Shown: piece after piece, positions 18,744-20,947 of the stretch
Layout: each line of letters begins with the position of its first letter
Position numbering within the stretch: the first letter of the stretch is position 1
From: Alphaproteobacteria bacterium
GTDB lineage: Bacteria > Pseudomonadota > Alphaproteobacteria > CAAHEQ01 > UBA3637
Length of the DNA stretch: 64,000 bases
Reading direction: 5' to 3'
NCBI GenBank assembly: GCA_015062385.1
Contig: SUUT01000006.1
Span: forward strand, 7,587-71,586
Position numbers and translations under genes: made by a program
Notes under the pieces: generated by a model
Databases searched by the model: none
Seen by the model: only the letters and a program-made list of their open reading frames with translations
What the model was told of the DNA's origin: nothing

Positions 18744-18961
18744 TTTACATAAAAACCCTAAAATAATGCAAGAATAAGGGGCAAAAGTGTAAAAATACAC
18801 AAAAAAATTAATCACTGTAATGCTAAAAAATATAAAGAATAAATCTGATTTAGAATAGAAACAAAAAAAATACAAAAAAATTTAATATATTTTTTATTTA
18901 AAGAAAAAAAATTATTTTTTTTTGAAAAAAATGCTTTATGTACTTGCATAATTAAAAATTT

Positions 18962-19231
18962 TAAGATACATTACCTTTCGTAAAGATGGCCAATCTTTAC
19001 AGGGATTTTGCGATCCGAGACTTATGTACAGAATTTGAACGAAAATTTATCACGTTCTATAAGTTTTATCAACTAAAGTTCTGTTGGCATCCTCTTACGA
19101 GAAGTAAAAAAAATACCTATCTCTGGGTGGATGCCTGCCTAATAAGGGGGACTCCCCAAATAAGCAGGGCTATTCTCACATAAGTCGTAGTTGCAAACAT
19201 CCACCCACCTTTTAACAGGTGGGTTGTTTTT
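18962..19231 (+). ncRNA. structured 5' leader or small RNA with competing antiterminator and terminator helices
   Basis: tgggtggatg (19124-19133) pairs with catccaccca (19198-19207), enclosing a nested hairpin (cctgc..ggggg-act-cccc..gcagg). The 3' strand overlaps terminator stem acccacct/aggtgggt (19203-19224), which is followed by tgttttt. An 8-bp hairpin gtaaagat-ggcca-atctttac lies near the 5' end. The 5' boundary is a guess based on a weak promoter-like ttgaaa...cataat at 18922-18952. Confidence 0.5.
19203..19231 (+). terminator. rho-independent terminator within the leader
   Basis: acccacct-tttaac-aggtgggt is followed by tgttttt, 31 nt before ATG 19262. Confidence 0.7.
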
Positions 19232-19261: not shown

Positions 19262-19687
19262 ATGTATAAACAATGCTCTTTTTATGAATATGGTTTTCAA
19301 AAATTATCAATTCTTGAAAAACAACAGCTGATAAATATTATCAGTATGTTAATTATTAATTATGATGTAAATGCATTTTACATCAATCCACAGAATGAAT
19401 TTAATCTCGAAGCGGCATCAATTATTTGGAACATAAAAAAAGGTCTTCAAAATTATATTCAACTGGATCTTTTTCCCTTAAATACCGAAGCACACGATTC
19501 GGTATCAATTAAGCAACCATCTCAAATTCAGTATAAAGTTGTTTACGCTAATACCAAACATCACAGTACGTTTTACATTCAAAAAATACAAGACAATAAA
19601 ATTACTTTGTTACATTCAGCCGATATTTTTATTGAAACGGAAAATGATAAAATTATTTCCCGACAACGACATTCGTTATTACAATAA
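19262..19687 (+). CDS. hypothetical protein (141 aa)
   Basis: An ORF with no recognisable motif, first gene after the structured leader. Confidence 0.45.
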   Translation: MYKQCSFYEYGFQKLSILEKQQLINIISMLIINYDVNAFYINPQNEFNLEAASIIWNIKKGLQNYIQLDLFPLNTEAHDSVSIKQPSQIQYKVVYANTKHHSTFYIQKIQDNKITLLHSADIFIETENDKIISRQRHSLLQ

Positions 19688-19787
19688 TCTATCAGTAGCA
19701 ATGTGTTTTTTGTTGACATTTTTCGCAATATATGATACATATTTGCACATAAACATCAATTAAATGTGATAACAAAAGGGACAATGT

Positions 19788-20423
19788 ATGTCAAAATCGT
19801 TGCTTCAAAATCCGATTTTTCTTGAATCATTTCAAATTAACAACAATCGCCTTTCTTTTGTGTATGCCAATATGCCTGCACAAGAAATACTGCCTGTTAT
19901 GCCTGTTTTATTAGTTCGAGGACAAAAAACAGTTTCGCATCCTAATGAATTGACACGAATTGAAAAAATCGGATATACAACGTATGGACAAGTCCTCAAT
20001 TACTTAAATCAACACCAAGCTGACACGCCTGATTATCCCGAAAACAACAACGTGGAAAAATTTTTGATTCAAAAATCCATTGATGCCCATCAAAACAAAC
20101 ACATTACTTATTTATTGCCGATACAAGACATTCAACGGCATCCGTTAGGCGGAATGCTTTTTATAAAAACCCGCATGGCAGACGGCACAAAGCATACCCG
20201 TTTTGTCGGCACAGTCGGCATGATGAAATTCCAACTGTTAAAGCACAAAGCCATTCCGTTGGATAAAGCACCGTTATACCCGTTCAAAACAGATGAAAAA
20301 CCGATTATTCCGGATACATCATTTACATTTTCTAATTATCGGTTTGTTCCAATTACACCAAATTTAACAAGCGCCGTTAAATTAGCTCGTATCAGATATG
20401 CCTGTCAACATCAACCGGAATAA
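19788..20423 (+). CDS. hypothetical protein (211 aa)
   Basis: An ORF with an RBS (aaagggacaatgtatg). No family was recognised. Confidence 0.5.
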   Translation: MSKSLLQNPIFLESFQINNNRLSFVYANMPAQEILPVMPVLLVRGQKTVSHPNELTRIEKIGYTTYGQVLNYLNQHQADTPDYPENNNVEKFLIQKSIDAHQNKHITYLLPIQDIQRHPLGGMLFIKTRMADGTKHTRFVGTVGMMKFQLLKHKAIPLDKAPLYPFKTDEKPIIPDTSFTFSNYRFVPITPNLTSAVKLARIRYACQHQPE

Positions 20424-20428
20424 AAAAA

Positions 20429-20947
20429 ATGTCATTTAAAACAAACGATACTTTATGGGATACAGTCAAACGCTTTATTAGCGGTATTTTTTGGCAATTA
20501 CCATGGTTGAGTGCCGTTGGTGGTGGTTCGTGGTTTGTTAAACAAAATTTACAAACATATTTGGAAACTTATTTTGATTTATTTTTATATCAAAAAAACG
20601 CCATTGATTTACAAGAACGAACCGAAGCCGTTCAGGCAACATTATCCTTAACAAATCCGTTACGCTATGCCGATTACATCTCGGCACTATCGGCAAGTAC
20701 GTTTGCTTCTGCCAAAGCCTCAACAGTAGAACAAGCTATTCATTTAATCAGCGGATTGACAAACGGTATTTTATCCGTTGTTTGGGTTATTGCCTGTATT
20801 TATGCCGTTATTCGTGTGTTTAAACATGTCAACCAAAAAACAATGGAAAATGATATTGCTAATCAGGTTGTGGAAAAATTATTACCTATTTTGGAAGATA
20901 TTCAATATCAGTCTTATCAGGCAAACACGTCAAAAAAAGCAGAATAA
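20429..20947 (+). CDS. hypothetical membrane protein (172 aa, 2 TM)
   Basis: It starts 5 nt after the preceding stop. The TM helices are FISGIFWQLPWLSAVGGGSWFV and ILSVVWVIACIYAVIRVF. Confidence 0.5.
   Translation: MSFKTNDTLWDTVKRFISGIFWQLPWLSAVGGGSWFVKQNLQTYLETYFDLFLYQKNAIDLQERTEAVQATLSLTNPLRYADYISALSASTFASAKASTVEQAIHLISGLTNGILSVVWVIACIYAVIRVFKHVNQKTMENDIANQVVEKLLPILEDIQYQSYQANTSKKAE

Follow-up and report, generated by a model that had tools for sequence, protein, structure and literature searches.

A three-stem leader RNA related to sRNA-Xcc1 and C4 antisense RNA, proposed to act as a terminator switch in gut Alphaproteobacteria

The window analysed here, a 64,000-nt stretch of Alphaproteobacteria bacterium (assembly GCA_015062385.1, contig SUUT01000006.1, positions 7,587 to 71,586), carries on its + strand a structured leader that lies between a likely promoter and a three-gene operon (Table 1). 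As read from the sequence, the leader is a folded RNA of ~255 nt (~18979-19231) with its own promoter and terminator. Its core is a distant relative of sRNA-Xcc1 (RF02221) and of the C4 antisense RNA (RF01695), with c4-type a1/b1 sites upstream of it, and the element is an unannotated variant of the c4/sRNA-Xcc1 kind, set apart by its abundance, its self-addressing and its terminator output. An earlier sequence-only reading had taken it for an unclassified leader with the expression-platform logic of a riboswitch or attenuator; the attenuator logic is kept here, and the idea of an unclassified riboswitch is given up, the core being related to two described RNA families. We consider it rather probable that the leader is a self-addressed two-state attenuator of the c4 class, with a trigger, and a sign of that trigger, that we infer. 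The leader probably decides whether transcription runs into the downstream genes.

Table 1. Features of the leader and of the operon behind it (positions in the window)
Feature	Position	Strand	Description
Likely sigma-70 promoter (predicted from sequence)	18944-18972	+	−35 TTGCAT 18944-49, 17-nt spacer, −10 TACATT 18967-72
Hairpin 1	18980-19000	+	GTAAAGAT / GGCCA / ATCTTTAC; perfect 8-bp stem
Hairpin 2	19002-19016	+	GGGA UUUUGCGA UCC; loop holds a1-like UUUGC 19007-11
b1-like site	19018-19033	+	core GACTTATGT 19019-27, complement of P3-loop ACATAAGTC 19178-86
Hairpin B	19037-19057	+	GAACG / 11-nt loop / CGTTC; between b1 and site II; in minimum free energy fold
Site II	19082-19097	+	TGTTGGCATCCTCTTA; complement of P1 and P2 5′ strands (motif nt 1-15)
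Three-stem c4/sRNA-Xcc1-like core	19125-19206	+	82 nt; 80.8 bits with covariance model R1
P1	19125-19133 / 19198-19206	+	GGGTGGATG with CATCCACCC; 10th pair T19124/A19207
P2	19134-38 / 19164-68	+	CCTGC with GCAGG
P2 internal loops	19140-45 and 19158-63	+	TAATAA, AAATAA; apical GGGG/CCCC hairpin is P2b
P3	19170-73 / 19187-90	+	CTAT with GTAG; 13-nt loop 19174-86 is b′
J3/1	19192-97	+	junction strand; a′
Intrinsic terminator	19203-19231	+	ACCCACCT 19203-10, TTTAAC loop, AGGTGGGT 19217-24, then TGTTTTT
Three-gene operon	19262-20947	+	141, 211 and 172 aa; from the open reading frame list

Promoter, fold and strand of the leader

The −35 box of the likely promoter fits the consensus at only 3 of 6 positions, for which reason a promoter scan did not list the site. 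Homologous leaders carry TTGnnn-17-TAnAAT-like boxes 10-15 nt 5′ of hairpin 1, and we predict a transcription start near 18979 in the window. The 5′ limit first proposed for the element, 18962, is about right, the likely promoter lying just before the conserved upstream hairpins, and the proposed length of ~270 nt is right as well. At the position of hairpin B, relatives also carry a hairpin (such as AGTCG...CGACT).

Over a 279-nt stretch, the minimum free energy (MFE) has a z-score of −6.2 relative to shuffled sequences. An alignment of 34 distinct cores gave a three-stem consensus with compensatory changes. Among 63 distinct homologues, 93.7% of the cells are paired, compared with 30-42% when the partners are slid by 1-3 columns, compensatory (double) changes occur at 17 of the 23 pairs, and none of 500 shuffles reaches the observed values; the alignment behind these figures was fitted to the covariance model, which favours the model somewhat. 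The consensus is the three-stem fold of C4, in which P1 encloses two hairpins and J3/1 is single-stranded. The structured leader that the sequence-only reading had proposed is borne out by these values, and the helices it had described are conserved in homologous leaders. Its 10-bp helix (19124-19133 with 19198-19207) corresponds to P1 plus the pair T19124/A19207 and shows covariation, and the hairpin nested inside it, with taataa/aaataa internal loops, corresponds to P2 plus GGGG/CCCC; the third stem, P3, had been missed.

Copies with differing helices and addresses keep an AAUA/AAUA internal loop, a CUAU/AUAG base of P3 and an 'AAC' 5′ of the P1 3′ strand invariant. A G stands at +1 in 78 of 79 distinct loci, and R-C-Y follows directly 3′ of P1 in 76 of them, the window's version being ACC 19207-09.

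We place the pairing at the RNA level and on the + strand because G-U pairs occur in the long-range helices and because the opposite strand scores poorly (R1 gives 81 bits on the + strand and 21 bits on the reverse strand). A DNA-level repeat, whether a miniature inverted-repeat transposable element (MITE), a repetitive extragenic palindrome (REP), a set of integron attC sites or the inverted repeats of an invertible segment, is therefore extremely improbable. Such a repeat would be consistent with the presence of many copies, sometimes in tandem arrays ~330-490 bp apart, with the location of many of them at contig ends, and with the nested inverted repeats that exist at the DNA level too. The G-U pairs, however, make up 16% of the long-range pairs, are many in the core and fit one strand only; the orientation of the copies relative to the start codons behind them, and the distance to these, are constant; the copies carry a terminator with a T tract, and the sequence between the repeats does not show the conservation of a mobile unit. 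Invertible DNA and a MITE were ruled out by G-U content and strand specificity. Integron attC sites, considered for the tandem arrays of small open reading frames (ORFs), were rejected: the element has no R′/R″ boxes, lies upstream of its gene and has a terminator.

Kinship with sRNA-Xcc1 and C4

A search of Rfam at the gathering threshold on the whole window, and at E ≤ 10 on the local region, returned nothing relevant, and like the sequence-only reading we find no match to a known riboswitch class. An Rfam scan had been proposed as a way to classify the element; it left the window without a match, and relatives of the window copy gave sub-threshold matches to RF02221 and RF01695. In five loci, the RF02221 matches are full-length and lie exactly on the motif, at 33-41 bits (gathering threshold 53). 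In total, 49 RF02221 matches of 22-42 bits, none over the cut-off, were obtained in 13 of 14 motif-bearing genomes, compared with none in 14 control genomes, and several of the 49, the top ones included, coincide with matches of our own covariance model.

The core also has the architecture of sRNA-Xcc1. Common to both are a 9-bp P1, a P2 with an AAUA.../GAAUAA internal loop and an apical hairpin, an adjacent P3, and a J3/1 of the form UUUNGAN. In two bona fide sRNA-Xcc1 loci on plasmids (70-73 bits), one of Nitratidesulfovibrio vulgaris (L140 400-760) and one of Pseudomonas aeruginosa (L142 400-760), we read the sites by eye. In both, an upstream hairpin carries a1 in its loop and is closely followed by b1, and the Shine-Dalgarno sequence (SD) of the next gene is overlapped by a copy of b2 (CACAAAGGAGG in L140; AAGCAGAGG in L142, where the next gene encodes a BRO-family protein). 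The C4 clan of Rfam does not include sRNA-Xcc1.

To C4 itself, the family gives one RF01695 match in a relative (L122, 28.4 bits, below threshold), with phage P1 as a positive control at 68.8 bits. The region upstream of the core has the layout of the c4-a1b1 motif, with two directly adjacent hairpins, the second having an 8-nt loop that carries a1, and with b1 immediately 3′. In the published motif, the hairpins are adjacent and the second has the form CGGAUUUAGCGAUCCG (Weinberg et al. 2010, PMC2864571 supplement). Hairpin 2 of the family resembles GGG(C/U)GUAGNAACCC, which is that form, and in relatives a variable hairpin stands directly 5′ of hairpin 2, as in the published alignment. Phage P1 served as a yardstick for the two sites: its annotated a1 sits in the hairpin-2 loop and pairs with J3/1 of c4, and the P3 loop has its partner in b1, 7 nt beyond that hairpin.

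Front-end contacts, the terminator and a proposed switch

Three sites in the front end of the leader are complementary to the core. For the first, the hairpin-2 loop of every one of 66 loci carries a Watson-Crick complement of 5-6 nt (a1) to the 6-nt J3/1 (a′), whereas only 1.3% of non-cognate pairs of J3/1 and hairpin-2 loop reach 5 nt. In the window, the loop UUUUGCGA and J3/1 UGCAAA match in this way. For the second, the P3 loop (b′) has a complement of 8-13 bp (b1) that at almost all loci lies close behind hairpin 2, and its sequence is a different one nearly each time. When the P3 loop is paired with upstream sequence, the mean duplex energy is −10.7 kcal/mol for cognate and −6.1 kcal/mol for non-cognate combinations, and 71% of the cognates beat all 12 sampled non-cognates. 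The addresses are private: the 19 loci of one genome have 19 different pairs of J3/1 and P3 loop. The P2b hairpin was also considered as an address and was rejected for want of cognate specificity.

The third site, site II, is a complement of 10-14 bp that lies 3-45 nt upstream of the motif and tracks every P1/P2 sequence variant (mean duplex energy −18.7 kcal/mol cognate, −15.8 kcal/mol non-cognate). It is used in the MFE fold of the window, and we regard it as a putative anti-antiterminator. The pairings of the three upstream sites with the core are nested, so that front end and core together form one long interrupted hairpin.

We also searched the window's own genome for exact words complementary to the P3 loop of each of its three copies. 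At 9-10 nt, it returned only the loci themselves, the b1 site (9 nt) and scattered short-word matches. As a separate observation, the box (T)TATGTGAGAATAG recurs in the same genome at four sites (C33:27698, C33:29250, C42:60717 and C6:7430), ~10-20 nt 5′ of an SD with its start codon. It has the appearance of an extended −10 promoter, and by coincidence it also agrees with the complement of the P3 region in the window.

At the 3′ end, a terminator-like hairpin that starts in the P1 3′ strand is found in 76 of 79 loci, and in 70 of them it re-uses 3-4 nt of P1 (4 nt in 59, 3 nt in 11). In the window, the terminator scan gives an 8-bp stem, a 6-nt loop and a T tract, with a 5′ arm that re-uses the last 4 nt of P1. 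The overlap between terminator and helix 3′ strand was part of the sequence-only reading, as was the logic of a mutually exclusive antiterminator (P1) and terminator, and this logic proves to be conserved across hundreds of copies. The family thus has the arrangement of an attenuator: mutually exclusive helices, one of them an intrinsic terminator, that are kept in homologues.

In the switch that we propose, the core 19125-19206 can fold as a three-stem, tRNA-like 'c4 fold' in which P1 takes up the first 4 nt of the terminator. Four segments would have alternative pairings: 1:2 would be site II with the P1 5′ strand, 2:3 would be P1 itself (the antiterminator), and 3:4 would be the P1 3′ strand with the terminator 3′ arm. 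Contacts a and b would act as two extra, private ties of the leader to the core. With the core captured by the front end, the 3′ strand of P1 would be left free, the terminator would form and a short RNA would result; if the core folds alone, P1 would compete with the terminator, and read-through into the YpsA-like operon would be possible. That termination is modulated, and what flips the switch, we infer. One candidate trigger is a processed copy of the same RNA, which would act in trans on a1/b1 of nascent transcripts and would fit with addresses that are private and have no other target; other candidates are a protein that reads the invariant AAUA loops, and folding kinetics.

Several observations weigh against this interpretation. 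The window copy is unmatched by RF02221 even at E ≤ 10, RF01695 matches it neither at the gathering threshold (45 bits) nor at E ≤ 10 on 151 nt, and the Rfam models reach threshold on no copy of the family. A covariance model built from the published c4-a1b1 alignment gives just 7-14 bits (E > 0.1) and misses the window, although 9 of its 18 weak matches lie on the right strand within ~110 nt upstream of the core; the Rfam family for c4-a1b1 (RF03163) gave no match. An a2/b2 target at the downstream ribosome-binding site (RBS) was sought three ways and was not found. In the 15-120 nt downstream, the mean longest complementary match is 4.43 nt for cognate and 4.43 nt for non-cognate combinations, and exact complements of the P3 loop within 600 nt are no longer than background. 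As a2/b2 are absent, the mode of action may differ from that of c4. The whole-leader MFE is the nested, front-end-captured fold together with the terminator, at −87.1 kcal/mol compared with −57.8 kcal/mol when P1 and P2 are enforced; the captured fold being ~29 kcal/mol more stable, termination could be constitutive. Lastly, the invariant AAUA loops are left unexplained by the attenuator model.

Constitutive termination is what a free-standing small RNA (sRNA) gene would predict. On this account, the 255-nt transcript is a self-masked precursor that is cut to a mature c4-like RNA, with RNase P acting at the 5′ end, the mature RNA acts in trans elsewhere, and the operon is expressed separately. 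The thermodynamically favoured fold contains the terminator, a few copies (L016, L020 and L022) have no nearby downstream ORF, and sRNA-Xcc1 is described in the literature as trans-acting. The 5′ end of c4 is reportedly cut by RNase P (Citron & Schuster 1990; Hartmann et al. 1995). The conserved G+1 and the R-C-Y after P1 are compatible with such processing, and by analogy RNase P may cut 5′ of G+1 here, in the attenuator model as well. Nevertheless, we consider a free-standing sRNA gene unlikely. A co-oriented SD and start codon of an ORF follow at about +48 nt (median 48 nt after P1) in 65 of the 79 copies, the downstream sequence holds neither a cognate-specific complement at 15-120 nt nor P3-loop complements above background length within 600 nt, the sole specific partners found for a′ and b′ are on the same leader, and the overlap of 3-4 nt between P1 and terminator is kept although the sequences differ.

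The invariant loops would be accounted for by a protein-dependent antiterminator or attenuator, in which one RNA-binding protein shared by the copies would bind to what is invariant in the c4 fold, stabilise P1 and let polymerase pass the terminator. The AAUA/AAUA loop, the CUAU/AUAG base of P3 and the 'AAC' stay the same while helices and addresses differ, the copies form a large set before genes of surface and secreted proteins, and the A-rich loops resemble the (ARN)n motifs of the Hfq distal face. No candidate protein has been identified, however, and sRNA-Xcc1 of unrelated bacteria keeps the same loops, so that a lineage-specific regulator is not needed; moreover, a protein alone leaves the private a and b addresses unexplained. 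We judge this model quite unlikely, and return below to the self-addressed attenuator in the light of the genes that the copies precede.

Copies, downstream genes and comparison with known systems

With R1, we searched 80 genomes of the gut alphaproteobacterial family and found the core in 70 of them, representing 13 of 16 genera. Copies per genome range from 15 to ~36 in some ~1-Mb genomes; the window's own genome has three. A search at the level of the order only repeated the family search, because the order holds one family. A broader model, R2, identified the motif in 18 further genomes from ~11 other alphaproteobacterial families. Applied to a phylum sample of 401 genomes, R2 found nothing outside Alphaproteobacteria, and only the window's genome and one other alphaproteobacterium matched. 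In a DNA search of relatives, conservation at the sequence level is limited to the 3′ ~100 nt, which often occurs in multiple copies and in tandem. A pattern scan of one genome per species located true copies solely in metagenome-assembled genomes (MAGs) of uncultured gut/rumen Alphaproteobacteria; pattern matches in Stenotrophomonas, Mucilaginibacter and Mycobacteriales fall in coding sequence and were dismissed as chance.

In four genomes (G080, G088, G100 and G062), a contig ends within a few hundred bases of many of the copies. Short-read assembly seems to break at the leaders or at the paralogous genes that follow them, so copy numbers are probably underestimates. A leader with the start of its YpsA-like gene is 100% identical over ~160 nt across three genera (L012 1043-1200, L013 and L021, in G034, G022 and G023), which suggests recent horizontal transfer of a YpsA-like cassette. 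Two further genomes contain three tandem units ~330-490 bp apart (L005 1501-2401 in G004:C5; L006 1011-1911 in G012:C4), each unit consisting of a c4-like core, a terminator and a 62-aa ORF (MKENNDTLNQVMLKCAWELS...) with a hydrophobic tail, and each having its own b1/P3-loop address.

Behind the window copy, ORF 1 of the operon (19262-19687) encodes a degenerate YpsA/SLOG-like protein. It matches by BLASTP (E = 8e-6) a YpsA-like protein behind the same leader in a relative, and a protein of a relative passes the Pfam cut-off for YpsA (PF06908, 30.1 bits). CSFYEYG stands in ORF 1 where an N-terminal CxFFGHR is usual, and the signature for nucleotide binding may thus be missing. The same genome has two further copies (C40:127460-127538 and C42:52271-52346; L063 and L064), which precede genes for ankyrin-repeat proteins, which are possible secreted host-interaction factors.

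Across the family, the genes behind the copies are diverse. They encode YpsA/SLOG-like proteins, type IV pilin-like cysteine-rich proteins, lipoproteins, outer membrane protein (OMP) beta-barrels, ankyrin-repeat proteins, a family-2 glycosyltransferase (GT2) and, in the tandem units, 62-aa ORFs; a further class is endonuclease-I-like, as read from the N-terminus of a 77-aa fragment without a Pfam match. In the L025-type YpsA leaders (L012, L032, L046 and L056-L058), the SD region, GGGTGGAT(N)ATG, is identical to the P1 5′ strand, so the P1 3′ strand and site II could also mask the RBS and add translational control in this subfamily. As a general mechanism, sequestration of the SD by the P1 3′ strand was rejected (rank 0.40); the identity with GGGTGGAT was seen in that one subfamily and does not hold across the family.

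The diversity of these genes makes a metabolite riboswitch, one of the possibilities first raised for the leader, unlikely. In a metabolite or second-messenger ON riboswitch, the three-stem core would be the aptamer, and a ligand would stabilise P1 against the terminator. The conserved three-way junction, the invariant unpaired nucleotides, the covarying helices and the overlap of P1 with the terminator all suit such a switch, and riboswitches for cyclic di-GMP likewise occur in multiple copies before adhesin-like genes. The gene set, in contrast, is heterogeneous, lacks a metabolic theme and is not coherent, the core is kin to antisense RNA families, and the Rfam riboswitch families give no match. 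Each copy also has 8-13 bp of private complementarity to its own leader, a trait of no riboswitch class; a private long-range address of base pairs per copy marks an antisense system and not a ligand sensor. We therefore rate a riboswitch as very unlikely.

The self-addressed attenuator, by comparison, has a place for the private addresses, and a more speculative extension of it can be drawn. Each copy could be a self-addressed RNA feedback loop, in which the freed short RNA, released for example by RNase P, binds only the nascent a1/b1 of its own locus and blocks capture, so that P1 forms and read-through follows. The result would be heritable, gene-by-gene ON/OFF control (bistable, and similar to phase variation) of pilin-like, lipoprotein and other surface genes, by RNA and not by DNA inversion. 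We offer this as a tentative idea that is more apt to be wrong than right. If it were true, the family would offer, ready-made in nature, dozens of RNA switches that are orthogonal and programmable.

Whatever the trigger, the family is a very abundant regulatory RNA of uncultured gut/rumen Alphaproteobacteria that annotation based on Rfam does not see. Through it, sRNA-Xcc1, which is mostly regarded as an orphan trans-acting "virulence" sRNA, is connected with the antisense design of phage P1 c4; the family is a variant in which the only specific partner found for the antisense RNA is its own leader and whose output is an intrinsic terminator. The role of the c4 a1/b1 sites, long without an explanation, becomes testable in a setting where there is nothing else for the RNA to pair with. 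Should the proposed switch operate, private RNA addresses would give separate control of many surface and secreted proteins, with a bearing on host colonisation and a use as orthogonal synthetic parts.

sRNA-Xcc1 is known from Xanthomonas integron cassettes, a Xylella genomic island and plasmids. Like the present family, it occurs in multi-copy tandem arrays spaced by a few hundred bp (PMC12189769) and sits upstream of a co-oriented gene (bioRxiv 10.1101/2025.06.18.660453), and the three tandem units of L005 and L006 recall the five tandem sRNA-Xcc1 copies in Xylella (PMC12189769). A b2 copy overlaps the SD of the next gene in the two true sRNA-Xcc1 loci read here, and none does so in this family.

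With c4 of phages P1 and P7 (immI operon), the family shares the order of promoter, two adjacent hairpins and a three-stem RNA closed by P1, as well as an R-C-C-like tail after P1. As in phage P1 c4, J3/1 provides a′ and the hairpin-2 loop its partner a1, and the P3 loop provides b′, whose partner b1 follows closely on hairpin 2. In some c4 RNAs, the 3′ half of P1 overlaps the 5′ half of a terminator (Weinberg 2010, PMC2864571), as P1 does here. The family differs from c4 in the additional pairing of site II with the 5′ strands of P1 and P2, in a P1 of 9 bp (~17 bp in c4), and in a P2 that has a conserved AAUA/AAUA internal loop where c4 has a simple tetraloop hairpin. It is also chromosomal, with up to ~36 copies per genome before surface and accessory genes, whereas c4 stands before icd-ant.

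Finally, the leader resembles attenuators of the trp-leader type and the platforms of ON riboswitches in having four successive segments with alternative pairings. It differs from classical attenuators and riboswitches in that no conserved leader peptide or ligand is evident. Another difference is that an entire structured RNA domain serves as the antiterminator and makes two more private contacts, a and b, with the leader.

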